Source: Ignavibacteria bacterium (GTDB lineage: Bacteria > Bacteroidota > Ignavibacteria > Ch128b). Taken from it: a stretch of DNA of 55,857 nt. The stretch's first letter is position 1. Each line of letters opens with the position of its first letter. Shown here one piece after another: positions 2,141 to 15,532 of this stretch. The position numbers and the translations under genes are program-made. The notes beneath the pieces were generated by a model. That model was not told the origin of the DNA and ran no database searches. It saw only the letters and a program-made list of their open reading frames with translations. Where the stretch lies: positions 1 to 55,857 of the forward strand of contig JBNAWO010000003.1 of the NCBI GenBank assembly GCA_049699815.1. Reading direction: 5' to 3'.

Positions 2141-2236
2141 AGCAATAAAAAAATATAAAAAGCAAAGGAATTAAAGAAACCCTGAATTTAAAACTTTTAG
2201 AAATCAAAATAATTTGATTGATTTGATCCTCTTCAA

Positions 2237-2273
2237 AATAAAAAAGGTTTAGCAGAAATTTATCCGCTAAACC
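2237..2273 (-). terminator. Rho-independent terminator after the aminomutase operon
   Basis: Stem GGTTTAGC (2246..2253) / GCTAAACC (2266..2273). On the minus strand it is followed by TTTTTTATTTTG. Confidence 0.65.
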
Positions 2274-2301
2274 CTTCTGGGAAATTTCATTCTATGAAAA
2301 A

Positions 2302-3441
2302 TTACTCGTTGTCGTTTTGATTTTGAATCACCGGCAAAGAAATTGTTGAAGTACTTTCGTATGTTTCTGTAGGAGCGGGAATTCCTGACCTGTATTCTTC
2401 TGGTTTTACATCCGGATAGACGAAGGTTTCGTATTTGTAATTTCTTAAAATTAATTTTTCATCATCCTGGTATAAAATATATTGTGGCAATAAAGGGATT
2501 TTTCCACCTCCGCCTGGTGCATCAATAACATAATAAGGAACAGCAAGTCCTGATGTATGACCTCTTAACTTATCCATAATTTCAAGACCTACCTTCACAG
2601 GTGTTCTGAAATGGTTTGCACCTTTTGTCAGATCAGCTTGATAGAGATAATAAGGTCTAACTCTCATTAAAAGTAATTTTCTAAAAAGTTCTTTTATAAC
2701 TTCAGGATCGTCATTTACACCTTTCATAAGAACGGTTTGATTTCCAATTGGAATACCCGCATCAGCTAAAAGTTCACAAGCGCGTTTACTTTCAGGAGTT
2801 ATTTCCCACGGATGATTGAAATGTGTGTTCACATAGATTGGATGATATTTCTTCAACATCCTCACAAGTTTAGGGGTAATTCGATGAGGAAGAACTACTG
2901 GCATTCGAGTACCAAGACGAATAATTTCAACATGCGGGATCTGTCTTAGTCTCTGAAGAATTTTTTCAAGCATTGCATCGGTTAACATCAAAGGATCACC
3001 ACCAGAGAGAATGACATCACGGATTTCTTTATGCTCTTCAATGTATTTGAACGCTGCTTCAAGTCCTCGCATTGATATTTTTGATGAGTCACCAACTTTT
3101 CTTTTGCGCGTACAAAATCGACAATACATTCCGCATTGACTTGTTGTTAGGAAAAGTACGCGGTCTGGATATCTATGAGTAATATTTGGAACAGGACTCA
3201 TCGAGTCTTCACCCAACGGATCTTCAGGTGCATCAATATCATTGAGTTCTGTTTCGTCAGGAACGCATTGCAACCAGATTGGATCGCCTGGATATCGAAT
3301 TAGACTCAGGTAATATGGATTGATGCGAGCCTGGAAAAATTTATCCAGTCTTTCAGCCACTCGTCTATCGAGCTTGAATTTCTCGACGAGTTGATCGACT
3401 GAATGAATGCTGTCTCTGATCATTTTTTGCCAGAGTTCCAT
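2302..3441 (-). CDS. kamA: Lysine 2,3-aminomutase family radical SAM enzyme
   Basis: 379 aa with the radical-SAM cluster motif CGMYCRFC. KamA-type YQADLTKGANHFRTP and VIDAPGGGGKIPL blocks are present, with both acidic residues retained. Confidence 0.88.
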   Translation of the reverse strand: MELWQKMIRDSIHSVDQLVEKFKLDRRVAERLDKFFQARINPYYLSLIRYPGDPIWLQCVPDETELNDIDAPEDPLGEDSMSPVPNITHRYPDRVLFLTTSQCGMYCRFCTRKRKVGDSSKISMRGLEAAFKYIEEHKEIRDVILSGGDPLMLTDAMLEKILQRLRQIPHVEIIRLGTRMPVVLPHRITPKLVRMLKKYHPIYVNTHFNHPWEITPESKRACELLADAGIPIGNQTVLMKGVNDDPEVIKELFRKLLLMRVRPYYLYQADLTKGANHFRTPVKVGLEIMDKLRGHTSGLAVPYYVIDAPGGGGKIPLLPQYILYQDDEKLILRNYKYETFVYPDVKPEEYRSGIPAPTETYESTSTISLPVIQNQNDNE

Positions 3442-3443
3442 AG

Positions 3444-3929
3444 TTATTCCCCTTGATTTTGTAAGTATTTGCCGAAGATTATCAGGCTATCACCTTTTTT
3501 ATAAAAATCTTTGATGACAGCCAGCTCTTTGTAATTATTTTTTTTGTAAAAACTTCTTGTACTTTGATAATCATCGCGTGATGAAGTCTCCGCAAGGATC
3601 AATCTTCCATTTTTTGAAAACACATATTTTTCAGCATCTTTAATTAATTGTGTTCCAACTCCTGAGCCGCGAGATTCTGGATCAACAACAATCCAGTATA
3701 AATCGTAAACTCCATCGGTTAAAGCGCGATGTCCAATGCAGTAATATCCTAAAACTTTTTCATCATCTTCGGCAACTTTGAAGTAATAATCATTTTGATC
3801 TGGGTTGTTGATTACAATATCAATCAATTCCAATCCAACTTCTTTTTCTTCAGGTGAAAAATTTTCTGTTTTAAATAAAATTTCTTTTAATCTTTCTCTG
3901 TCTTCTTTTTTCATTTCTCTAATTTTCAT
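3444..3929 (-). CDS. GNAT family N-acetyltransferase
   Basis: 161 aa with a GNAT acetyl-CoA motif region (VVDPESRGSGVGTQLI). 2-nt gap to kamA and 4-nt overlap with the upstream ATP-grasp gene. Confidence 0.8.
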   Translation of the reverse strand: MKIREMKKEDRERLKEILFKTENFSPEEKEVGLELIDIVINNPDQNDYYFKVAEDDEKVLGYYCIGHRALTDGVYDLYWIVVDPESRGSGVGTQLIKDAEKYVFSKNGRLILAETSSRDDYQSTRSFYKKNNYKELAVIKDFYKKGDSLIIFGKYLQNQGE

Positions 3930-4975
3930 CTTTTTCTTTGTAGTGCAAATTCAATTATTCGAATTAAAAGTTGATCGTAACTTAATCCATAAGCTTTTGC
4001 TGCTCTGGCAAAACCCGCATCAATTGATATATCCGGATTTGGATTTACTTCAAGTATGAATGGTTCATTGTTTTTATCAATTCTAAAATCAACACGACAG
4101 TAATCACGACATCCAAATAAATTTGAAACATCAAGAGCAATTTGTTTAATCTTACCTGCCAATTTATCATCAAGGGGTGCAGGACAAACTGGAATAGTGT
4201 TTTTATAATAAAGACTATCTTTAATCCATTTACCATCGTAAGTTACAATTTTTGGTAGGTCATTGGGCAAAGTATCAAAACTTATTTCAGAAAGTGGAAG
4301 AGCAATTTTTTCTTTATCACCCAAAATTGCTGAATTAATTTCTCTACCTTCAATATATTCCTCAACCAGAATAGGTTGTTTTAGTGTATGATAGAGATAT
4401 TCGAGTTGTTCTTTTAATTCCTGTTCATTAAAAACAACTGACTGTTCGCTTATTCCAACGCTTGCGTCTTCCTGAGATGGTTTAACAATTAATGGAAACT
4501 CTGGCTTTGAATCAAAAATTATTTTTGACGGATTAATATATAATCTCCAATTTGGGACATTGTAGCCGGCGCCTTTCATAATTAACTTTGCTCGATGCTT
4601 ATTCAAACAAAGGCTCAGAGTAACCGCACTACAACCTGTATAAGGAATATCGTAAAGCTCGTAAATGCCAGCTATATACATTTCTTTAACTGCTTCACCA
4701 CCAACACTCTCAACTAAATTGAAAACCACATCATAATTACCTGAACCAATTTTTGAACAAAGCTCTTCGATATTATCAAGCAGATTAAAGACTTCTGTAT
4801 CAAAACCATTTTTAGTTAAAGTTTCCTTAATTGCCTCAAATTCTTCAAGCACTCCAATTTCTGATAAATCAATTGAATTAGAATATTCTGCTTTTACTCT
4901 TCTGCCGTCATAGCTTTCATAAATTCCACCAATTGGTTGGTTAAAGGCTAAAAGTATTTTAATATTTTCTTTCAT
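3926..4975 (-). CDS. D-alanine--D-alanine ligase-like ATP-grasp enzyme (paralog A)
   Basis: 349 aa with Ddl-family organisation (IPYTGCSAV..., KPSQEDASVGIS, EEYIEGREI, EVNPNP). Confidence 0.8.
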   Translation of the reverse strand: MKENIKILLAFNQPIGGIYESYDGRRVKAEYSNSIDLSEIGVLEEFEAIKETLTKNGFDTEVFNLLDNIEELCSKIGSGNYDVVFNLVESVGGEAVKEMYIAGIYELYDIPYTGCSAVTLSLCLNKHRAKLIMKGAGYNVPNWRLYINPSKIIFDSKPEFPLIVKPSQEDASVGISEQSVVFNEQELKEQLEYLYHTLKQPILVEEYIEGREINSAILGDKEKIALPLSEISFDTLPNDLPKIVTYDGKWIKDSLYYKNTIPVCPAPLDDKLAGKIKQIALDVSNLFGCRDYCRVDFRIDKNNEPFILEVNPNPDISIDAGFARAAKAYGLSYDQLLIRIIEFALQRKR

Positions 4976-6054
4976 ATTCCGTATCTTTTTCTTGCTTCAT
5001 TTAATACCGCATTAATCATTTCTTCGTAAGTCATTCCAGCTGCTCTTGCAGCCTTTGGGTAACAGGAATTATCCTTTGGATCTGGAAGAATTCCAGGCAA
5101 AGGGTTGATTTCAAGCACATTTGGTATTCCGTTTTCGTCCAGTCTTATATCTATTCTTGACCAATCTCTGCACCGCAAAACTCGATAAGTTGAAAGAGCT
5201 ACTCTTTCAATTTCAGTTTTTAATTTTTCATCTATGTTTGCAGGACATTCATAAATATCAAGAGGATCTTCTCTGGTATCAAAAATCCATTTTGCCTCAT
5301 AAGAATAAATGGGTAAAACACCCTCAGGCAATTCTTCAAATTTCATTTCAATAATGGGTAATACTCTTGCATCTTTTCCATTTCCTAAAATAGCAACTGT
5401 GAATTCTCGCCCATTAAGAAATTTTTCGACAAGAGCTGATTGATTATAAATTTGATGTATCTTCTGAATTTCATTAAACAATTCATCTTTAGTACTTACA
5501 ACAGATGAATTGAAAATTCCTTTACTCGAACCTTCGGCTACTGGTTTAACAATAGCCGGCAACGGAAAATCAATTGAAGTAAAATCTTCTTCTTTTTCAA
5601 TCAAAAGAAATTGGGGAGTTGGAATTTTGTAATATGAAAGGATTTCTTTTGTACGAGATTTATCAAGACAAATTCCAAGTGTGACAGGATCTGAACCAGT
5701 ATAAGGTATATTCAAAAATTCGAGCATTGCAGGAATTTGTGCTTCACGACTTATTCCATTAAAACCTTCTGCAATATTAAATACGATATCAGGATTTAAT
5801 TCACGAAGAGTTTCAAATGCATCGTTATCGGCTTCAACAAGAGTCACATTATGATAGATTGCTAACGCATTTCTTACTGCGTTAATTGTTTCTTCTGTGT
5901 CCCACTCTGCAAAAGTATCTTGATTAATCTCTGAGTTGTAATTGAACTTTTTGAGAAAAGGATACTTAGCCGATGGAGTGTCAAAACTTTCCTGTTTAAT
6001 ATTATAGGTGAGAACAACATTTAATTTCTTTTCAGAAGAAGTATAAGTACTAAT
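4972..6054 (-). CDS. D-alanine--D-alanine ligase-like ATP-grasp enzyme (paralog B); 5' end unresolved
   Basis: The ORF track starts at GTG 5847, but the frame stays open upstream to 6057. That stretch encodes an N-terminal region (KKLNVVLTYN...EWDTEETINAVRNAL) that aligns with paralog A. There is no ATG/GTG/TTG between 5848 and 6057. Candidates are ATT at 6054..6052, or ATG at 6081..6079 separated by an in-frame TGA at 6060..6058. Confidence 0.6.
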   Translation of the reverse strand: MSTYTSSEKKLNVVLTYNIKQESFDTPSAKYPFLKKFNYNSEINQDTFAEWDTEETINAVRNALAIYHNVTLVEADNDAFETLRELNPDIVFNIAEGFNGISREAQIPAMLEFLNIPYTGSDPVTLGICLDKSRTKEILSYYKIPTPQFLLIEKEEDFTSIDFPLPAIVKPVAEGSSKGIFNSSVVSTKDELFNEIQKIHQIYNQSALVEKFLNGREFTVAILGNGKDARVLPIIEMKFEELPEGVLPIYSYEAKWIFDTREDPLDIYECPANIDEKLKTEIERVALSTYRVLRCRDWSRIDIRLDENGIPNVLEINPLPGILPDPKDNSCYPKAARAAGMTYEEMINAVLNEARKRYGI

Positions 6055-6101
6055 AAATCACTCTCTCAATTTGTTCAACATATTTACTTGATTCACTTGC
6101 T

Positions 6102-6129
6102 AATATATTATTTAAAAAATTTTTGTCAA
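6102..6129 (-). promoter_or_regulatory. Putative sigma-70-type promoter of the ATP-grasp/GNAT/kamA operon
   Basis: On the minus strand: TTGACA (6129..6124), 16-nt spacer, TATATT (6107..6102). It lies about 20 nt upstream of the in-frame ATG at 6081. Confidence 0.4.
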
Positions 6130-6137
6130 TAGGTTTT

Positions 6138-6326
6138 AAATGTTTTTTAAAAAATTTTTTGAAGATGAAAAATGAGTCTTGAAGAAAAAATTTTTTTAAT
6201 CATCGATCTTGAATAAATGTTTTAAAATTGATTCAATTAAATTCTTAATTACAGAGAGTATGAATTGAAAAAATGTTTTAAAGTGTTCGTAAAGATTTTT
6301 TTGTTTTAAATTCTGTGAAATGTTTT
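6138..6326. repeat. Four direct copies of AAATGTTTT in an intergenic region
   Basis: Exact 9-mer at 6138..6146, 6215..6223, 6271..6279 and 6318..6326, between the panB stop and the ATP-grasp operon promoter. Confidence 0.6.
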
Positions 6327-6361
6327 TCAGGTATGCTGCTAAAATTTATAGCGAATATGAA

Positions 6362-7177
6362 TCAATAACTTTCTTTTTCGTTGGGAAAATCTCCGCTGCG
6401 AACATCTTCAATATAATGTTTAAACGCATCGAAGATTGTTTCTGAAAGATGTGCATACTTTCTAACAAATCGTGGATTGAATTCTTCAGTCAATCCAAGC
6501 ATATCATAAACAACAAGTATTTGTCCATCAACATATTTACCAGCACCAATTCCAATTGTTGGAATTTTAACTGATTGAGTAATTCTCTTTGCCAGTTTAG
6601 CCGGCACTTTTTCAATCACAATTGCAAAAGCTCCAGCTTCTTCAAGTGCTTTTGCATCGCGGATTAATTGTTGAGCTTCGTCTTTCTCTTTCCCTCTCGG
6701 TTGATATCCACCAAAACGATGAATTGATTGAGGAGTTAATCCAATATGCCCCATCACAGGAATTCCATTTGCTGTGAGTTTAGCTACTGTTTCAGCAAAA
6801 ATTTCTCCACCTTCAATTTTTACAGCGCCTGCATCAGTTTCTTTCATAATTCTTCCTGCATTACGAAATGCTTCTTCAATATTGGTCTGATAAGTCATAA
6901 AAGGCATATCAACAACAATCATTGCTCTTTTAACGCCGCGTTGAACAGCTTTTGTGTGATAAATCATATCATCAAGGGTAACAGGAAGTGTGGTCAGATG
7001 TCCTTGAAAGACATTGCCAAGTGAATCGCCAACCAAAATTATATCAATTCCAGCGCGATCACAAAGTCTAGCAATTAAAAAATCATAAGCCGTAAGCGCT
7101 GTTATTTTTTCTCCATTATTTTTCATCTCTTGAATTTTTCGCGTCGTAACTTTTTTTATTTCTGAAGATGCACTCAT
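6362..7177 (-). CDS. panB: 3-methyl-2-oxobutanoate hydroxymethyltransferase
   Basis: 271 aa with typical PanB blocks ([32 protein letters not shown]). Confidence 0.92.
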
Positions 7178-7920
7178 ATCAAGATCTCACTTTCTACAAA
7201 ATTAATTTCAAAAACTTTTTCGAAACCTCTTTTCAAACAAAACTTTAATCTCTCAAGATCAACTTCTGAGTTAAGAATCTCTTTCAACGAAATAGTCTTA
7301 GCATCAAGGTCATCTTTCAGAAATTTTTTTTCTTCATCATCAAGATTGAGATAATCGACAATTTTTTTGTGATAATCCCCGAGCAGTATTGATCCATGTT
7401 GAAGAATCACATCGTTAATTACTCTTTGAGCTGATCCAATTAACTTTTTATTCTGAAATTTAATTTCATTTCTTGCTGAACTTGAAAAACAGGGTATTGA
7501 GCGAGATGATTTGTAAAAATCTTTAAAGTCAATCTGAGCTTTTTCAAGTTCAACAGATTTCAGCCTTTCATCATAGAGATGTAAACCCTCAAGCAATGCA
7601 AAATTGATACTATAATAAATTTCGTATGGAGAAAACATTTCAAGAGGAGTTGTAACTGAATAAGTTAATTCATCAGAATGTAAGATAGCTCTGCCGCCTG
7701 TTGGCCGTCTAACTATATCTATTGAATCTCTTGCACATAATTCTTCGTTAATTGTTTCAATTTTTTGGTGATATCCAAGTGAGATTGCAAATGGTTCCCA
7801 CTGGTAAAAACGTAAAAATGAAAAACCCTCTTCTCTAACTTTATCCACGAGCCTTAGATCAAAATCCATATTAAAATTTCCGGAGTGCTTTCCGGTATCC
7901 AATATAAACCAATCTTTCAT
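7174..7920 (-). CDS. Lipoate/octanoyl-protein ligase family protein (BPL/LPL catalytic domain)
   Basis: 248 aa with [18 protein letters not shown] and KLIGSAQR motifs typical of LplA/LipM-type enzymes. 4-nt overlaps on both sides. Confidence 0.7.
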
Positions 7921-8690
7921 TTGCTTATTCCGCGTCGACTCTTGTCAATAAATTCAAGCAGATTTTTAACTTCAGTAGTTTGTTTAACTTCGTTTTTAAT
8001 TTTTTCGACAGCTTGGGTTGTGTTGAAAAAAGGACTGTAAAGAATTGTATAAGCCTCTTTAAGTGAATTTATTGCATCAGATGAAAAACCTCGTCGTCTT
8101 AAGCCAATTATATTCAAACCTTCATAATGAATTGGATTTCCACTGAACAAAGTATAAGGTGGAATATCTTTAACTATTTTTGAACAAGCTCCAATCATAG
8201 AATGCTGACCAATACTTGTAAATTGATGAACTCCGGTAAGTCCACCAATTATAACATAATCTTCAACATGAACATGACCTGCAAGTTCAACTGAATTTGC
8301 CAGAATACAATTATTACCAACCACACAATCGTGAGCAATATGAACATAAGCCATCAGAAGGCAATTATTTCCAATAACAGTTTTCTTTGTCGCCGAAGTT
8401 GCTCGGCTAATTGTAACTGCTTCTCTAATTGTATTGTTATCGCCGATGAAAACTTCTGTATATTCATTATTAAATTTTAAATCTTGCGGAACTGCAGCGA
8501 TTACTGCACCTGGGAAAATTTTATTGTTTTTTCCAATTCTTGCTCCGTTATAAATCACAACATGACTAAGAAGTTTAGTTCCGCTATCAATTTTAACATC
8601 TCCTTCGACAATGCAGAAGGGACCAATTACGACATCATCTGCGATTTGCGCTTCACTTGAAACAATAGAGGTAGGATGAATTTCAGGCAT
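7917..8690 (-). CDS. lpxA: Acyl-ACP--UDP-N-acetylglucosamine O-acyltransferase
   Basis: Left-handed beta-helix hexapeptide repeats with an LpxA-type C-terminus. The start is set at MPEIHPTSIV (ATG 8690), because the longer ORF would overlap lpxC/fabZ. Confidence 0.88.
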   Translation of the reverse strand: MPEIHPTSIVSSEAQIADDVVIGPFCIVEGDVKIDSGTKLLSHVVIYNGARIGKNNKIFPGAVIAAVPQDLKFNNEYTEVFIGDNNTIREAVTISRATSATKKTVIGNNCLLMAYVHIAHDCVVGNNCILANSVELAGHVHVEDYVIIGGLTGVHQFTSIGQHSMIGACSKIVKDIPPYTLFSGNPIHYEGLNIIGLRRRGFSSDAINSLKEAYTILYSPFFNTTQAVEKIKNEVKQTTEVKNLLEFIDKSRRGISK

Positions 8691-8697
8691 AGGATTT

Positions 8698-10116
8698 TTA
8701 TTTCTGTGATTTTTGACTTTCTTCTTTTGGAACAACTGCAGCCATAAATTCAGCTTCTGCTGCAAGATTTCCGTCTACAATTGCACGACCTTTCATTGTA
8801 AAAGTTTTGCTTCTTGAATTAACAAGTTCAACTTCAAGAATCAATTGATCACCCGGAACTACAGGTTTTCTAAATTTTGCATTATTAATAGCCATAAAGT
8901 AAACCAAGCTATTTTCAAAATCAGGAATTGAATTTAAAAGTAATATTCCACTTGTTTGAGCTAGTGCTTCAATGATCAGTACACCCGGCATTACCATTTG
9001 TCCAGGAAAGTGTCCCTGAAAATATGGTTCGTTAATGGTTACATTTTTAATTCCAACAACTTTCTCGCCCATTTTCAATTCAACGATTTTATCGACAAGA
9101 ACAAAAGGATAACGATGGGGAAGAATTCGCAGGATTGCGTTTGCATCAAAAACAACACCTTCCTTTTTGATGAACTGATATTTCTTTTCAAGTTTTTTCT
9201 GTTGATATAGTTTTCTTATCATTCGAGCAAATTCAACATTTGCTCTGTGACCTGGACGAGCCGCTAAAATTTGAGCTTTGAGCGGGACACCAATCAATGC
9301 AAGATCGCCAATTAAATCAAGAACTTTGTGTCGTGCTGGTTCATTTTTAAATCGAAGTGTTTCATTATTTAAAATTCCATTTTCACCGATAAACAATGGG
9401 TGTTGTATATTTAACTTTTGCGCTAAATTTTTTAATTCATCTTCACTCAGCTTTCTATCAACAATAACAACAGCGTTATCAATATCTCCGCCTTTAATTA
9501 GATTTTGATTAACAAGTTGTTCAACTTCGCTTAAGAAACAAAATGTTCGAGCAGTTGAATATTCAGTAATGAATTCTTTTTCAAGAGAAAACAAACTTGA
9601 GTGTTGACTTCCAAGAGCGGGATTGTTGTAATCAATCATTATAGTTATTCTAAAATCATCAAGCGGAAGAGCAACTATATCAATTCCCTTCTCTTCATCA
9701 TGATACATTACAGTCTGATCAATTACTAAATAATCTTTTGGAGCTTCCTGTTCGACAATTCCGGCTTCAAGGAGAGCATCGACATATAGTTTTGCACTTC
9801 CGTCACCAATTGGTGGTTCAATTCCATCGAGTTCAATTTTCAAATTGTCAATCTTCAATCCATAAACAGCAGCTAAAACATGCTCAACAGTGTGAACCTT
9901 TGCCTCACCCACTGCAATTGTAGTCCCTCGTGAAACATCAATAACATTTTCAACTATTGCAGGAATCTCAGGATTACCACCAAGATCAACTCGAATAAAT
10001 CTTATACCGTAATTCTCTGGTGCTGGTTTAAATGTCATTGTACATTCAGTGCCGGTATGAATTCCAATTCCTGAAACTGTTACGGGTTTGGCAATAGTTC
10101 TCTGTTGTTCAACCAT
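8698..10116 (-). CDS. lpxC/fabZ: Bifunctional UDP-3-O-acyl-GlcNAc deacetylase / 3-hydroxyacyl-ACP dehydratase
   Basis: 472 aa. The N-terminal LpxC part shows GIGIHTG and HTVEHVLAA. The C-terminal FabZ hot-dog part shows LPHRYPFVLVD and FQGHFPG. Confidence 0.92.
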   Translation of the reverse strand: MVEQQRTIAKPVTVSGIGIHTGTECTMTFKPAPENYGIRFIRVDLGGNPEIPAIVENVIDVSRGTTIAVGEAKVHTVEHVLAAVYGLKIDNLKIELDGIEPPIGDGSAKLYVDALLEAGIVEQEAPKDYLVIDQTVMYHDEEKGIDIVALPLDDFRITIMIDYNNPALGSQHSSLFSLEKEFITEYSTARTFCFLSEVEQLVNQNLIKGGDIDNAVVIVDRKLSEDELKNLAQKLNIQHPLFIGENGILNNETLRFKNEPARHKVLDLIGDLALIGVPLKAQILAARPGHRANVEFARMIRKLYQQKKLEKKYQFIKKEGVVFDANAILRILPHRYPFVLVDKIVELKMGEKVVGIKNVTINEPYFQGHFPGQMVMPGVLIIEALAQTSGILLLNSIPDFENSLVYFMAINNAKFRKPVVPGDQLILEVELVNSRSKTFTMKGRAIVDGNLAAEAEFMAAVVPKEESQKSQK

Positions 10117-10126
10117 AAAGATACTC

Positions 10127-11173
10127 CTATTTTTTTTCTTTTAATCTTTGTTCAAGCTCATCAATTTTTTTATTTAGTTCAAATAATTTTTCTCTCAGCT
10201 CTGGAAGATTTCTAATTAGTGCGTTTAGTTTAAATGCTTCTCTAACTTCCATTGCTGGATAACCAAAATAAACTTTTCCTTTTTTCAAATTATGAGACAC
10301 ACCAGATTGAGCCATTACAACAACATCATCTTCAACTTCAATATGATCAGCAAAACCTACCTGACCTGCAATGACTACATTGTTTCCAACTTTGGTACTT
10401 CCGGCAAATCCAGTTTGACCCGATATCGCACAATTTTCACCGATAACCACATTGTGAGCAATCTGGACAAGGTTATCTATCTTTGTCCCTTTTTTAATTC
10501 TTGTCTCTCCAATTGTTGCTCGATCAATGCAGGTGTTTGCACCAATTTCCACATCGTCTTCAAGTACAACAATTCCAATCTGTGGAATTTTCTTATAGGT
10601 TTTATCTTGTTTTTTATAATAACCAAATCCATCGCTCCCAATTACGGCACCAGCATGAATAATATTTCGTTTTCCAATTTTACATCTTTCTCTAATAGTT
10701 ACATTTGAATAAATAATTGTATCGTCACCAATTTCTACATCATTAAGAATTGAGACATTTGAGTAAATCATTACATTATTACCAATTTTACAATTCTTTC
10801 CAATTGAAACATTCTCTCCGCATCTGAAATTTTCTCCAAATGAAAAATTCACATCCTCAGCCTTTTTATCAAATAAAGGTGGGAGTTCAATTTCGGGAAT
10901 GAAAAACTTTTCAATTACCTGTATGAATGCGAAATATGGGTCCGCGACTTTAATTAAAGTGAGAGCTGGAAAGTTTTTGGTGAAGTCTTTTTTTACAAGA
11001 ATAGCAAAAGAAGAAGCAGGAGTTAAAAACTTTACATATTTATCTTGATATAAAAATGTGAGATCATTTTCGCCTGCTTCTTCTATTTTTGCAACATTTT
11101 TAATTATTTTATTTTTATTTCCAATAACTTCACCATCAACCAGCGAAGCAATATCTTCAACTTTAATAATCAT
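10127..11173 (-). CDS. lpxD: UDP-3-O-acylglucosamine N-acyltransferase
   Basis: 348 aa with hexapeptide repeats and a C-terminal coiled-coil tail, in the canonical position in the lpx cluster. Confidence 0.9.
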
Positions 11174-11177
11174 AAAA

Positions 11178-11681
11178 TTACTTTAATGCTTGTAGAACTT
11201 TGTTTGTTAGATCATATTTTTCATTTGCGTAAAGTAGGAGAATTTCTCCACTCTTATCGAAAACGAAATCGTATCCTTCATCTTTTGCAATTTTTTCGAG
11301 AGCATTAAAAATTTTATTCTGAATTGGTTTCATAAACTCTTCTTGTTTCTGGAAGAGTTCACCATTTTGTCCGAATTTTTGCTCACGGAATTGGATAATT
11401 CTGTTTTCAAGATCGACAAGTTCTTTTTCTTTTTCAGCTCTTGTTTGATCGCTCATAATTAATTTATCGCGATCATATGCATCATACTTTTGCTTCCATT
11501 CTGATTCAAGTTTGCGGAGTTCTGTCTGCCATTCCTGAACTAAATTATCCAGCTTTCTTTGTGCATCCTGAGCTTCTGGAAGCTCTTTCATTATTGCCTC
11601 AGAATTTATGTAACCGATTTTAACCTGAGCAAAAATCGGAAATACAAAAAGCAATGCGGAGAGAATGATTAGCTTTTTCAT
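11178..11681 (-). CDS. skp: OmpH/Skp family periplasmic chaperone
   Basis: 167 aa with a signal peptide and a charged coiled-coil-rich sequence, located between bamA and lpxD. Confidence 0.85.
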
Positions 11682-11694
11682 AAAAGCCCCTTGT

Positions 11695-12228
11695 TTATTT
11701 TACTTTCCCGCGTCTTAATTGATCTAGAACTTTGAAAGTTAAATCGTAAGATGGATCTGAATAAAGAACAACTACATCTCCAGCTTTATCAAACACAATA
11801 GTTACTTTTTCTTCTTTAGCAACTTTTTCAATTGCTTTGATGATGTTTTGCTTGATTGGATTAAGCAATTCATCTTGCTTTTGTGCAAATTCACCTTGTT
11901 GTCCAAATTTTGCTTGTCGGAAATTATAAATTTCCTGTTCAAGTTTCATTATCTCTTGTTGCTCTTTAAGTTTTACTTCTTCGCTCATCAAAGCTTCTTG
12001 CTTACGATAGTTGTCGATTCTGTCTTGATATTGCATAGAGAGACTATCGAGCTGCGATTGCCATTTCTTAACTATTTCATTTAATTGGTCTTGAGCTTTT
12101 TTGTATTCAGGAAGCTGACTTAAAATTATTTCTGAGTCTACAACACCAATTTTTACTTGTGGTTGTTGTGCTAATAATAATGTGGATGCAAGAAATATGA
12201 ATGGTAAAATTAATTTAAACGTTTTCAC
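11695..12228 (-). CDS. skp: OmpH/Skp family periplasmic chaperone (second copy)
   Basis: 177 aa, paralogous to the adjacent gene (KIGVVDSE..., FDKAGD..VLY). GTG start preceded by AAGAGG. Confidence 0.85.
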   Translation of the reverse strand: MKTFKLILPFIFLASTLLLAQQPQVKIGVVDSEIILSQLPEYKKAQDQLNEIVKKWQSQLDSLSMQYQDRIDNYRKQEALMSEEVKLKEQQEIMKLEQEIYNFRQAKFGQQGEFAQKQDELLNPIKQNIIKAIEKVAKEEKVTIVFDKAGDVVVLYSDPSYDLTFKVLDQLRRGKVK

Positions 12229-12255
12229 TTCTAACCTCTTAATTTGTTATTGTTT

Positions 12256-14769
12256 TTACATTCCTCTTCCGAATTGAAAATGGAAGATCCATTGCGGATC
12301 GTAACCACTAACAGATTTTCTATCGAATCCATAACCAAAATCGAATCCAATCATACCTATAGGATTTATCAGAACACGAGCACCGAAACCGACACTTCTT
12401 TTTAAGTCAAATATATTAACATCTTTCATATCTCTCCAGACATTTCCTGCTTCAGCAAAAGCGAGAACATATAAAGGCATTGGCTGGAGAGTGACTGCTA
12501 ATCTTAATTCAAAAGTATTTCGAGAAAATATCTTTCCACCAATTACATTTCCATTAACATTCTTCGGACCAATTGATCGATCATCATAACCTCGCAAGGG
12601 TTCTGTCGCAATAATCAAACCGCTTCCACCCATATAATAATATTCAAAAGGTTGAATTGGTGTATTGGGCACAAGTTCATAGATAAATCCATAATAATTT
12701 CCTAAGAACAAAGTAATCTTATTTGAACCAAATAATCTTCGATAAACTTCGAGATTAATATCTGTTTTTAAGTAATCAACATCACCAGGCAAAAAAGGTC
12801 CACCAGATAAATCGAAATCAATCCCAAGATTACTTCCAGTGCTCGGAAAGATTGGATTATCAATATCTTTTCTTCCAAATCCAAAAGTTAAAGAGTATTG
12901 TTTATACATTCCTTCACGATAGTAACCACCACCACCTTTCACATCATTCATATAATATCTGAAACTTCCATTAACCATAAAGTAATCATCGGGCCAGGAA
13001 AGTCTTCTACCAACTCTGATGCTTCCACCGTATTGTCTTAATTCATAAATGTAAATCTGCCTTGTATCAAAAACATCAAAACCGATTGATGTGGGCGTAT
13101 CCATAAACCAGGGTTCAGTGAATCCGAGCTGGAAAGTTCTGTAATAATTTCCAATTCCAAATTGCCAGTTGAAATTTAAGACCTGTCCACCGCCAAGAGT
13201 AAATGGATGTGCGAGAGAGAAGTTTGTTAATGTGATACCAACTGCACCACTAAATCCCCAACTTCCACTATATCCTACCGAAGCATTTAAATAATCACTT
13301 GATTTTTCTTCAACTTTGTATGTTATATCTACAGTTGAATCTGATGTTGGGAAATAATCAAGACCCTCTTGATAAAGTTTTTCTGGATTAAAGTATTGAA
13401 GATTTGCAAGTTGCTGAAGACTTCTCAAAAGCAAAGCTCGATTGAAATAATCACCGGGTCGAGTAAACAATTCACGACGAATTACTTTATCCATTGTTTT
13501 ATCGTTCCCTTTGATTTCGACATATCCAATCTTGAATTGATTTCGTTCAGCAATTTTAATAATGATATCGAGCGAATCTTCTGCAACCTTTATCTCTTCG
13601 GTTTTAAGTGAAAATCCTAGATAACCATTATCAAAGTAAAGTGAAGAAACATCTGACTGTTGTTCGTTCTGCCTTAAATTCCTTTCAAATTTTTCGTAAT
13701 CGAAAACATCGCCTTTTTCGAATCCTAATCGTTTATTCAAAACATCTGTTGGAAAGACTGTATTCCCTACCCACTGGATGTTTCTAATTTTGTATTGAGG
13801 ACCTTCATAAAGGTAAATGTCTAAAAAGAGATTTTTCTTACTTTCATCCAAATAGATTGAATCTTTTAGAATTGTTGCGTCAATGTAACCATTCTTTTTA
13901 TAAAATTTTATTAATGCTTCTTTATCTTTTTCAAAGTTTTTCTTATCGAATTTTTCTTTCTTCCAGAATCGCCACCATCTCTTTTCAACTGTTTCATCAA
14001 ATTCTCTGATTAATTTACTTTTAGAGAAATTTTTATTCCCATAAAAATTAATCTGTTTTACAAGAATTACATTACCTTCATCAATTTTAATTTTCAATAA
14101 AACTCTATTTTGAATTCTTCTAATTGTTTCTGCATCTGGTTTGTCGCTAAGATTTATTTCGGTTGTGTAAGTGTCTTCTGGATCATATTTATTAACCCAG
14201 TGAATGAGGAGTTTCTTCTTTGTTGTATCAACTTTTGAAAATTCAAGAAGTGTTGTTGTAACTTCTGCATTGAGCATCCCTTTATCTTCATAAAGACGCA
14301 AGATGCTTCTTTTTAACTTACTTATATCTTGAGGTTTTAATGTTTGACCTCTTATTAATGTAACCTCCTTCTTAAGATCTTTTTCACCAATCTCGTCATT
14401 CCCAACAAACACAAAATCTTCAAGTCGTGGAAATTCTTGTACTTTTATTAAGATATAAATACCATCACCAATTTGTCGTTCTTTAATTAATTGAACATCG
14501 GAAAAAATATTTAAGGCAAGAATTCTTTTTATTGCATTGATGGTTGCATCACCTGGAACTTGAATTACATCACCAATTTTGAGTCCACTCGATGCAATAA
14601 TCACAGTTGGATCAGCCGTTACATTTCCTTCAACTGAAAGTCCAAGAATTTTATAGGTTGGTAAACCTTGTTGAGCAAAAGCTTTGCTGGACAAGAAAAA
14701 GCTTATAATTATGATAAAAAAGATTTGAATATTATTTCCTTTGTTTGAGAAGAAGAGCATTTTTTCCAT
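12256..14769 (-). CDS. bamA: Outer membrane protein assembly factor BamA
   Basis: 837 aa with a signal peptide, POTRA-like repeats and a C-terminal Omp85 barrel ending ...FHFQFGRGM. Confidence 0.9.
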   Translation of the reverse strand: MEKMLFFSNKGNNIQIFFIIIISFFLSSKAFAQQGLPTYKILGLSVEGNVTADPTVIIASSGLKIGDVIQVPGDATINAIKRILALNIFSDVQLIKERQIGDGIYILIKVQEFPRLEDFVFVGNDEIGEKDLKKEVTLIRGQTLKPQDISKLKRSILRLYEDKGMLNAEVTTTLLEFSKVDTTKKKLLIHWVNKYDPEDTYTTEINLSDKPDAETIRRIQNRVLLKIKIDEGNVILVKQINFYGNKNFSKSKLIREFDETVEKRWWRFWKKEKFDKKNFEKDKEALIKFYKKNGYIDATILKDSIYLDESKKNLFLDIYLYEGPQYKIRNIQWVGNTVFPTDVLNKRLGFEKGDVFDYEKFERNLRQNEQQSDVSSLYFDNGYLGFSLKTEEIKVAEDSLDIIIKIAERNQFKIGYVEIKGNDKTMDKVIRRELFTRPGDYFNRALLLRSLQQLANLQYFNPEKLYQEGLDYFPTSDSTVDITYKVEEKSSDYLNASVGYSGSWGFSGAVGITLTNFSLAHPFTLGGGQVLNFNWQFGIGNYYRTFQLGFTEPWFMDTPTSIGFDVFDTRQIYIYELRQYGGSIRVGRRLSWPDDYFMVNGSFRYYMNDVKGGGGYYREGMYKQYSLTFGFGRKDIDNPIFPSTGSNLGIDFDLSGGPFLPGDVDYLKTDINLEVYRRLFGSNKITLFLGNYYGFIYELVPNTPIQPFEYYYMGGSGLIIATEPLRGYDDRSIGPKNVNGNVIGGKIFSRNTFELRLAVTLQPMPLYVLAFAEAGNVWRDMKDVNIFDLKRSVGFGARVLINPIGMIGFDFGYGFDRKSVSGYDPQWIFHFQFGRGM

Positions 14770-15532
14770 ATCCTTTTACCTGTTCGCTGACCAAACCGAA
14801 TTTTCTTTCTCTTTTTTGATAATCTTCAATTGCTTTATAAAGTTCATTTCTTCTGAAATCGGGCCAGAGAGTTTCTGTAACATAGAGTTCTGTATAAGCA
14901 ATTTCCCATAACAAGAAATTACTAACTCTCATTTCGCCACTTGTTCTGATAAGTAAATCCGGTTCAGGGAATTCAGCAGTTGAAAGAAATTTTTTGAAAG
15001 TTTCTTCATTGATTTCTGATTTTTTAATTTTTTTATTTGCCACACTATCAGCAATTTTTCTTGTTGCTTGAAGTATATCCCATCTTCCTGAGTAACTAAG
15101 AGCTAAAATTAAATTCAATCTGGTATTGTTTTCAGTTTTTTTAATTGCTTCTTTCAATTGTTTTTGAACTGCCTCGGGTAAACTTTCAAAATCACCAATC
15201 ATTCTTAGGCGAATATTGTTTTTGTGAAGTTCATCTGTTTCAGTTTTCAAAGTTTTTAGAAGTAATTTCATTAAGGTTGAAACTTCTTCTTTTGGTCGCC
15301 TCCAGTTTTCAGTAGAGAAAGCATAAAGAGTTAAATATTCAATTCCAAGTTGAGCGCAGGCTTCAACAACATCCCTAACAGATTTTACACCTTCTGAGTG
15401 ACCTGCAACACGAGGCAAACCTCTTTTCTTTGCCCATCTGCCATTACCATCCATTATAATGGCGATATGTCTTGGTAAATTTCCTTTATTTTTAAGCTTT
15501 TCCTGAAGTTTTTGGTCCTCAGTCGATTGCAC
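14732..15532 (-). CDS. uppS: Undecaprenyl diphosphate synthase
   Basis: 266 aa with HIAIIMDGNGRWA and FSTENWRRP motifs. GTG start; the 3' end overlaps the bamA ORF by 38 nt. Confidence 0.92.
   Translation of the reverse strand: MQSTEDQKLQEKLKNKGNLPRHIAIIMDGNGRWAKKRGLPRVAGHSEGVKSVRDVVEACAQLGIEYLTLYAFSTENWRRPKEEVSTLMKLLLKTLKTETDELHKNNIRLRMIGDFESLPEAVQKQLKEAIKKTENNTRLNLILALSYSGRWDILQATRKIADSVANKKIKKSEINEETFKKFLSTAEFPEPDLLIRTSGEMRVSNFLLWEIAYTELYVTETLWPDFRRNELYKAIEDYQKRERKFGLVSEQVKGYGKNALLLKQRK

Follow-up and report, generated by a model that had tools for sequence, protein, structure and literature searches.

A conserved operon of a lysine 2,3-aminomutase, two Ddl-like ATP-grasp ligases and a GNAT: candidate pathway to an N-acetylated beta-lysine peptide or amide

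In cells, beta-lysine occurs as an osmolyte precursor, as a modifier of elongation factor P (EF-P), as a fermentation intermediate and as a building block of antibiotics. Small N-acetylated peptides are made elsewhere by an acetyltransferase together with an ATP-grasp ligase, as for N-acetylglutaminylglutamine amide (NAGGN), which requires the bifunctional GNAT/ATP-grasp protein Ngg and AsnO, and for mammalian N-acetylaspartylglutamate (NAAG), which requires the GNAT Nat8l and the ATP-grasp enzyme RIMKLA/B; the DdaG/DdaF (dapdiamide) and MysC/MysD (mycosporine) pathways each use two ATP-grasp enzymes, and carnosine synthase is an ATP-grasp ligase acting on a beta-amino acid. For beta-lysine, KamA and an acetyltransferase (AblA/AblB) form a two-gene route to N-epsilon-acetyl-beta-lysine, an osmolyte (PMC3543383). 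Here, we analysed a 55,857-nucleotide stretch of DNA from an Ignavibacteria bacterium (contig JBNAWO010000003.1 of assembly GCA_049699815.1; 33% GC), referred to throughout as the window, in which genes for two Ddl-like ATP-grasp ligases, ATP-grasp B (AGB) and ATP-grasp A (AGA), are followed by genes for a GNAT N-acetyltransferase and a KamA-family aminomutase. We propose, with moderate confidence, that this four-gene operon makes a small, non-ribosomally assembled, N-acetylated beta-lysine peptide or amide from L-lysine.

The component reactions, namely radical S-adenosylmethionine (SAM) aminomutation, ATP-grasp ligation and GNAT acetylation, are of known kinds. What appears new is a widely distributed, uncharacterised ATP-grasp-based candidate pathway for beta-lysine, whose parts carry generic names only in curated libraries, and the cassette appears to represent a further, ATP-grasp-based use of this amino acid. 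Within the full-text literature reached by our searches, we found no description of a set of kamA, GNAT and two ATP-grasp genes, in agreement with the initial annotation of this DNA, which knew of no characterised pathway with this exact content; a paper on the sigma-54 regulome of Desulfovibrio vulgaris mentions the cassette neither in its text nor in its supplements.

Aminomutase, ligases and acetyltransferase

KamA of the window matches the lysine 2,3-aminomutase of Clostridium subterminale (PDB 2A5H) over residues 4–347 with 416 bits. The CxxxCxxC motif is kept (C125, C129 and C132 in 2A5H numbering), and D270, D307, K314 and R112 align to Asp293, Asp330, Lys337 and Arg134 of the clostridial enzyme, bearing out the initial annotation, which had singled out this motif and the acidic residues of the YQADL and VIDAPGGGGK blocks. 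All seven of these positions are invariant in 78 Ignavibacteria-side sequences (the window and 77 orthologues) and in nine KamAs of distant cassettes. In the clostridial structure, Asp293 and Asp330 hold the epsilon-ammonium group of lysine, Lys337 binds pyridoxal phosphate (PLP) and Arg134 the carboxylate; in glutamate 2,3-aminomutase, basic or neutral residues replace the two aspartates. Among the NCBIfam models, that for the AblA lysine 2,3-aminomutase ranks first (TIGR03820; 475.9 bits, cut-off 525.4), above those for glutamate 2,3-aminomutase (TIGR04368; 436 bits, cut-off 650), arginine 2,3-aminomutase (359 bits, cut-off 600) and EpmB (TIGR03821; 240 bits, cut-off 369.3); none of these four cut-offs is reached, and the general KamA-family model TIGR00238 is the only one passed (309 bits against 199). 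Because Asp293, Asp330, Lys337 and Arg134 are kept and the lysine model ranks first, the enzyme is, judged by its sequence, a lysine-type 2,3-aminomutase predicted to convert L-lysine to beta-lysine, as had been argued earlier in favour of lysine over glutamate as the substrate. At 379 aa against 416 aa, it lacks the C-terminal tail of the clostridial protein, whose zinc site comprises Cys268 and C-terminal cysteines, and the Pfam domain LAM_C is matched only over profile positions 1–61 of 127.

The two ligases are 37% identical to each other and 28–31% identical to E. coli DdlB. AGB matches Pfam Dala_Dala_lig_C with 125 bits, while the N-terminal domain was not detected as Dala_Dala_lig_N in the Pfam scan, and against the NCBIfam Ddl model (NF002378, cut-off 243) AGB and AGA reach 201.4 and 161.2 bits, respectively; both lie far under the cut-offs of the other NCBIfam Ddl and Van models. 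In Foldseek searches, an AlphaFold model of AGB (pLDDT 77.6) returned only Ddl structures, with template modelling (TM) scores of 0.7–0.8 at 22–27% identity, and structure searches for a nearer functional analogue yielded nothing else, consistent with a Ddl-like fold.

Residue conservation was counted over 84–86 sequences per paralogue. The counterparts of Ddl K97, K144, E180, E187, K215, R255, D257 and N272 are invariant in both AGA and AGB, and the sole variation among catalytic residues concerns the counterpart of E270 in AGB, which is Glu in 84 of 86 sequences and Asp in the other two. The residues that face the substrate in Ddl are changed: in AGB, E-S-W replaces the triad Glu15-Ser150-Tyr216, His63 is Glu, Glu68 is Arg, and Ser/Cys stands at Ser281/Leu282, whereas AGA has (V/T/I)-A-W at the triad (Ala for Ser150 and Trp for Tyr216; towards its N terminus, AGA can be aligned only with uncertainty), Asp at Gly276 and Ala/Gly at 281/282 (Leu282 to Gly). 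E51 of AGB is the retained counterpart of Glu15 and has an additional invariant acidic residue, E97, beside it; the AGA pocket likewise carries an additional one, D315. AGA and AGB are thus, by sequence comparison, catalytically intact ligases of the Ddl lineage but not D-Ala-D-Ala ligases. Nor do the sequences point to a role in murein synthesis, as orthologues are fused to KamA and present in Archaea, in groups that are not known to have murein. The initial annotation had named genuine peptidoglycan Ddl enzymes as an outcome that would overturn its reading, and the scores under all cut-offs, the changed substrate residues and the archaeal orthologues argue against that outcome.

The acetyltransferase contains a GNAT domain above the Pfam gathering thresholds (Acetyltransf_7, 50 bits against 27; Acetyltransf_1, 47 against 20.7). 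Its best NCBIfam match is RimI, at 52.3 bits under a cut-off of 86.4, and no AblB family is found among its 12 NCBIfam matches at E ≤ 0.01 (the AblB model being TIGR03827); the Ngg model TIGR03103 gives 16.8 bits against a cut-off of 569 and matches the GNAT only. The closest solved relative is PDB 2R7H (96.9 bits), deposited as “putative D-alanine N-acetyltransferase” and originating from Desulfovibrio G20, a genetically tractable strain. A GNAT 99% identical to 2R7H is encoded at 8001–8531 of locus L091, within the KamA/ATP-grasp/ATP-grasp/GNAT cassette of a Desulfovibrio G20-type genome, so that a crystal structure of a cassette GNAT already exists. The deposited name is likely wrong, having probably been taken from the “D-Ala-D-Ala ligase” labels of adjacent genes.

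Operon structure and conservation

Scanning one genome per species yielded at least 585 loci with a gene for a relative of AGB; the best 80 of these were fetched, and two further contigs were added. The order AGB-AGA-GNAT-KamA on one strand is present in 82/82 of these loci, three of them cut by contig ends, so the four-gene arrangement is far beyond chance and the neighbourhood of kamA, GNAT and two ATP-grasp genes, which the initial annotation saw in this DNA alone, is a constant one. Carriers include Ignavibacterium, Melioribacter, the cultured Rosettibacter primus, many Ignavibacteria metagenome-assembled genomes and Kryptonia, together with a few contigs under other phylum labels. Identity to the window proteins over these loci is 68–97% for KamA, 57–90% for AGB, 41–82% for AGA and 39–82% for the GNAT. 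In Candidatus Chrysopegis kryptomonas (L012, 9621–10654) the KamA match is split into 9621–10376 and 10376–10654, which suggests a frameshift or sequencing error. Six contigs labelled Synechococcus sp., Chitinophagaceae/Chitinophagales or Acidobacteriota (L026, L053, L067, L070, L075 and L076) carry an Ignavibacteria-type cluster in the same order, with AGB at ~58–61% identity, and are probably mis-binned or mislabelled Ignavibacteria contigs.

The open reading frames (ORFs) of the window agree with the four tightly packed minus-strand genes initially described: AGB and AGA share a 4-nt ATGA overlap, AGA and the GNAT overlap by 4 nt, and 2 nt separate the GNAT from KamA. The putative promoter proposed upstream (TTGACA-16-TATATT) scores 11/12 and is the top consensus match within the 8 kb scanned, where promoter-like matches are not in excess (27, against 31.1 expected from shuffled sequence). 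Support for this site therefore comes not from the match count but from its conservation among relatives: nine aligned related species show no change in either hexamer, and a TTGAC..TATATT pattern is recognisable 5' of most other orthologous clusters. The terminator, previously placed at 2237..2273, was recovered as a 16-bp hairpin with a T-run. Overlapping genes, a conserved promoter, a terminator and an invariant gene order support the earlier assumption of co-transcription, in a predicted single, self-contained operon from promoter to terminator. An RNA leader or riboswitch was considered and set aside, since Rfam, scanned at gathering thresholds, matched nothing in the window, and 5800–6400 stayed without a match at E ≤ 1.

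One claim of the initial annotation did not survive, namely that AGB starts at ATG 6081. The in-frame TGA at 6060–6058 ends a seven-codon reading frame, MLNKLRE, and 6081 is therefore not the start of the enzyme. To locate the start, we found the N-terminal motif LNVxLT[YF]N in 67 sequences and inspected the codons upstream. An in-frame ATT or ATC lies 8–10 codons before the motif in 47/67 sequences, preceded at 4–16 nt by an AGGAG-like or GAGAG-like Shine-Dalgarno sequence in 44 of these 47. No ATG, GTG or TTG occurs between the upstream stop and the motif in 14/67 sequences, all 14 of which have the ATT or ATC; gene callers shorten such AGB genes to 289–301 aa. In the window, GAGAGAG (6067–6061) and a 6-nt spacer precede ATT 6054–6052, and AGB likely initiates at this conserved non-canonical AUU/AUC codon. 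AUU starts are rare in bacteria, infC being an example. The first canonical start past the TGA, GTG 5847, was rejected because it would cost ~70 conserved N-terminal residues, some of them invariant. The mini-ORF overlaps the Shine-Dalgarno-like GAGAGAG, and in close relatives this part of the leader is closed by a TGA or TAA that falls at codon 4, 6 or 8, so that mini-ORFs of 4–8 codons overlapping the ribosome-binding site are seen in the window's subclade. Because the leader stops of relatives vary in codon position, the mini-ORF lies outside the enzyme and its TGA is genuine, and explanations of this TGA by sequencing error, selenocysteine or recoding were discarded for the same reason.

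The flanks, by contrast with the operon itself, are not conserved together with the cluster. The window's own copy has panB, a lipoate ligase and lpxA-lpxC/fabZ-lpxD upstream and pncB-pncA downstream; in a relative with 87% identity a hydrogenase operon is inserted between panB and the cluster. Clustering of flanking ORFs from the 82 loci returned housekeeping synteny only, with recG upstream in 63, then gpsA, plsY and NAD kinase, and the recurrent flank families contain no transporter, peptidase, racemase, carrier-protein, small-protein or ribosomal gene. Lysine fermentation needs kamDE, kdd, kce and kal; this reading was rejected, as neither the recurrent flank families nor the neighbours labelled by Pfam include any of them. 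We also consider an antibiotic cluster unlikely, with the gene order conserved over 82 species-level genomes and export and resistance genes absent.

These flanks also bear on two readings in which the beta-lysine would serve protein chemistry or the ligases the cell wall. The initial annotation had pointed to efp and epmA as neighbours whose presence would indicate EF-P modification; efp is indeed absent from the window and the 82 loci, and for epmA the statement holds as far as the recurrent flank families, among which nothing epmA-like was found, no sequence search having been aimed at epmA. The cassette might instead modify a protein, with a ribosomal protein or translation factor as the target of beta-lysylation and/or acetylation, in the manner of RimK, RimI or EpmA/EpmB. 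RimK and LysX are ATP-grasp enzymes that modify proteins, and EpmB supplies beta-lysine for EF-P; RimI is the best curated match of the GNAT, and the cassette is kept in small-genome DPANN archaea. We nevertheless regard this as improbable, since RimI reaches only 52 bits under a cut-off of 86, the ligases are of Ddl type rather than RimK type, no small-protein, efp or ribosomal gene is conserved beside the cluster and the EpmB score is 240 under a cut-off of 369. That the aminomutase is EpmB itself, or the ATP-grasp enzymes peptidoglycan D-Ala-D-Ala ligases, is favoured by family-level similarity only and is effectively excluded: KamA is far closer to the clostridial enzyme, part of LAM_C included, than to EpmB, so that the assignment to EpmB feared in the initial annotation falls away, while the ligases fail all Ddl models, differ at the Tyr216, Ser281 and Leu282 positions, and have KamA-fused orthologues in Archaea.

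Cassettes in other lineages and the predicted product

An exhaustive profile-free search returned 1,380 representative clusters at E ≤ 1e-30, many of them longer proteins. Pfam resolved the latter as fusions, joining KamA to a Ddl-like ATP-grasp domain (P0130, P0231), joining an ATP-grasp domain to a GNAT (P0190), or placing double ATP-grasp modules in a single chain (P0123, P0124, P0141). Fusions of KamA with an AGB-type domain, 650–880 aa long, number ~100 among the matches listed, and the sources listed for KamA/ATP-grasp fusions are Thermoplasmatota, Woesearchaeota, Nanoarchaeota, Methanocellales, Spirochaetales and Deltaproteobacteria. Together with the distant loci that we inspected (Table 1), this demonstrates that the cassette, often as fused proteins, recurs in many anaerobic bacteria and archaea. 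By BLAST best hit, KamA of every distant locus is fused to, or lies next to, a ligase of the B type, the other ligase being of the A type, and in a neighbour-joining tree AGB of the window joins the archaeal KamA-fused domains in 99/100 bootstraps. The KamA moieties of these loci all keep Asp293, Asp330, Lys337 and Arg134. In L089, where four activities are contained in two polypeptides, the KamA and B-type halves are nearest to archaeal fusions.

On these grounds, a pathway can be outlined. KamA would first convert L-lysine to beta-lysine, as its conserved active-site residues indicate. AGB would then take beta-lysine directly and make the first amide bond through an acyl-phosphate, since the AGB-type ligase is recurrently fused to KamA, and it probably activates the carboxylate of beta-lysine, because the Glu15 counterpart E51 is kept and the second acidic residue E97 is added. 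AGA and the GNAT, which we would pair in the manner of Ngg because an A-type-ligase/GNAT fusion exists, would add a second residue and the acetyl group. The remaining building blocks would be common metabolites or amino acids, or further beta-lysine, since the operon is linked to no additional enzyme that would supply a precursor. The product may be a cytoplasmic small molecule, for example a compatible solute or stress protectant, given that in Ignavibacteria the operon has no conserved exporter, peptidase or carrier protein as a neighbour; this is the most plausible guess and the weakest step. For an uncharacterised cassette, the pathway predicted in this way is unusually firm, because its parts are linked by independent gene fusions.

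The same fusions bear on the simplest alternative, a plain AblA/AblB pathway ending in N-epsilon-acetyl-beta-lysine, with the ATP-grasp genes as functionally unrelated neighbours. KamA with an acetyltransferase is the known two-gene route to this osmolyte (PMC3543383), and AblA is the top NCBIfam match of KamA. The GNAT, however, has no match to an AblB model, the ATP-grasp domains are fused to KamA and to GNATs elsewhere and stay where the GNAT is lost, and the genes, whose stop and start codons overlap, keep a single order throughout, all of which makes this alternative very improbable.

Additional genes in some distant cassettes hint at how the product is handled. A sigma-54-dependent activator lies directly upstream on the same strand in L090 (2857–4293) and L091 (2874–4310), which suggests regulated rather than constitutive expression of the cassette in Desulfovibrio. 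An HDAC-family deacetylase adjoins or is fused with a GNAT in Desulfovibrio mangrovi (L090) and in L088, and a cyanophycinase-like S51 peptidase follows the ATP-grasp/KamA fusion of L087, hinting at deacetylation and breakdown of the product. Sigma-54 control, deacetylase and peptidase, and the ion-transport neighbours of the woesearchaeal locus fit a regulated metabolite that is turned over, and fit a polycationic oligo-beta-lysine equally well.

In the latter case, beta-lysine would be joined to itself in a homo-oligomer or short polymer, a polycation resembling a polyamine, with one ligase making beta-lysyl-beta-lysine and the other extending it, and with the GNAT and an HDAC-type amidohydrolase switching its charge or activity. 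Ddl-type enzymes join two molecules of one amino acid. Apart from KamA, the cassette has no enzyme that supplies a precursor, both ligase pockets contain an extra invariant acidic residue (E97 in AGB, D315 in AGA), and the deacetylase and peptidase contexts would fit; the deacetylase and the peptidase, on the other hand, are each found in one or two inspected contexts and in none of the 82 Ignavibacteria loci, and the clearly different ligase pockets fit two distinct reactions equally well. We consider such an oligomer unlikely, if the least so of the alternatives. A bolder version, to which we give slightly less weight again, is an oligo- or poly-beta-lysine acting as a new class of cellular polycation or a cyanophycin-like reserve, made by the two Ddl-type ligases, toggled in charge by GNAT and HDAC and broken down by the S51 peptidase. 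If true, it would provide a polyamine surrogate or nitrogen store for many anaerobic bacteria and archaea, including DPANN, and the AUU/AUC start of the first gene would tie its level to translation-initiation status.

Several points weigh against the N-acetylated beta-lysine peptide or amide that we favour. KamA does not reach the cut-off of the NCBIfam AblA equivalog. The zinc ligand of the clostridial enzyme, Cys268, is also missing: the window protein has Asp at this position, and the cassette KamAs, the distant ones included, all have D, N, S, R or E. The start codon assigned to the first gene is non-canonical and was derived from sequence comparison. The GNAT is absent from some distant cassettes (L084, L085, L086), and that of Methanocellales belongs to another subfamily (27% identity over 75 aa); for this reason acetylation may be accessory. 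Support for one A-type clade in the neighbour-joining tree is weak. The proposed co-substrates and bond order are guesses. Ddl relatives often use D-amino acids, and yet no racemase is linked to the operon in the flanks of the 82 loci. Finally, the window offers no link between the operon and osmotic stress, and low-salt habitats such as groundwater are, by the record labels, the source of many carriers.

With the product identified, thousands of genes that now carry the labels “D-alanine--D-alanine ligase family”, “ATP-grasp domain protein” or “KamA family radical SAM protein” would gain a function, and anaerobes could turn out to have a new compatible solute or polycation. The prediction is open to direct testing, with cultured Rosettibacter primus and the L091 locus among the carriers.

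Elsewhere in the window, the genes upstream on the same strand (6362–15532) encode PanB, a lipoate-protein ligase, LpxA, a fused LpxC-FabZ, LpxD, two OmpH/Skp proteins (the second assigned by sequence similarity on inspection), BamA and UppS; the LpxC-FabZ fusion is typical of the Bacteroidota/Ignavibacteria lineage. Downstream of pncB, a nicotinamidase/isochorismatase gene on the minus strand (186–725), whose ATG at 725 overlaps the pncB stop and is preceded by AAGGAGG, has an in-frame TAA at codon 10 (698–696). Read through this TAA, it matches Pfam positions 2–173 with 95 bits, and otherwise 57–173 with 78 bits, which leaves a pseudogene, a nonsense mutation specific to the strain or an error of assembly as the explanation.

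Table 1. Features of the operon in the window (positions of the forward strand) and content of the distant cassette loci (coordinates of each locus).
Feature or locus	Position	Strand	Description
KamA	2302..3441	minus	KamA-family radical-SAM, PLP-dependent L-lysine 2,3-aminomutase (predicted); 379 aa ORF
GNAT	3444..3929	minus	GNAT N-acetyltransferase, PDB 2R7H orthologue; 161 aa ORF
AGA	3926..4975	minus	ATP-grasp A, second Ddl-like ligase; 349 aa ORF
AGB	4972..6054	minus	ATP-grasp B, Ddl-like carboxylate-amine ligase; probable ATT start; ~360 aa
Mini-ORF MLNKLRE	6058..6081	minus	7 codons in leader; stop TGA 6060–6058
Promoter-like site	6102..6129	minus	sigma-70 type; -35 TTGACA 6129–6124, 16-nt spacer, -10 TATATT 6107–6102
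Intrinsic-terminator-like hairpin	2231..2278	minus	16 pairs (2278..2241) and T-rich tail; 24 nt past KamA stop
L083			Methanocellales; KamA/ATP-grasp fusion, ATP-grasp, GNAT
L084			deltaproteobacterium; KamA/ATP-grasp fusion, two ATP-grasps, no GNAT
L085			woesearchaeon; KamA/ATP-grasp fusion, ATP-grasp; adjoins MscL, cation exchangers, CorA
L086			spirochaete; KamA/ATP-grasp fusion on its own
L087			ATP-grasp/KamA fusion in reversed order, then cyanophycinase-like S51 peptidase (4495–5196)
L088			KamA/ATP-grasp fusion, ATP-grasp, HDAC/GNAT fusion (9587–11872)
L089			metagenome contig; KamA/ATP-grasp fusion, AGA-type/GNAT fusion
L090			Desulfovibrio mangrovi; sigma-54 activator, KamA, ATP-grasp, ATP-grasp, GNAT, then GNAT/HDAC protein (8629–10386)
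L091			sigma-54 activator, KamA, ATP-grasp, ATP-grasp, GNAT (99% identical to 2R7H)

Comparison with known systems

With the AblA/AblB route, the operon shares a clostridial/AblA-type lysine 2,3-aminomutase and a GNAT in one transcription unit, as well as a product that is presumably a cytoplasmic beta-lysine derivative. It differs in its two integral ATP-grasp ligases, which are fused elsewhere to KamA and GNAT, in a GNAT outside the AblB family, and in a KamA that falls under the AblA cut-off and lacks Cys268. With EpmB/EpmA it has in common a KamA-family aminomutase that would make beta-lysine and a ligase that would attach it; it departs from that system in having an aminomutase of the long LAM type instead of EpmB, ATP-grasp ligases in place of a lysyl-tRNA synthetase (LysRS) paralogue, and no linkage to efp.

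Compared with the Ddl and Van ligases, AGA and AGB have the same predicted fold and the same ATP/Mg2+ and acyl-phosphate machinery. They are, however, only 22–31% identical to them, lie under all Ddl cut-offs, carry Trp at Tyr216 among other changed substrate residues, and form two paralogues in a KamA operon that also occurs in Archaea. The logic of NAGGN and NAAG synthesis, an acetyltransferase and an ATP-grasp enzyme producing a small N-acetylated peptide, is similar, and the A-type-ligase/GNAT fusions (L089, P0190) mirror the architecture of Ngg, whereas the ligases here are of Ddl rather than RimK type, the Ngg model is hardly matched, and the cassette includes in KamA a dedicated supply enzyme for a beta-amino acid.

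Similarly, DdaG/DdaF, MysC/MysD and carnosine synthase exemplify successive ATP-grasp ligations, or the ligation of a beta-amino acid, without a non-ribosomal peptide synthetase, although no sequence relationship to them was found past the superfamily level. In contrast to the DdaG/DdaF and MysC/MysD pathways, the cassette comes without tailoring, resistance or export genes, and, judged by where it occurs, it resembles a cassette of core metabolism and not a secondary-metabolite island.

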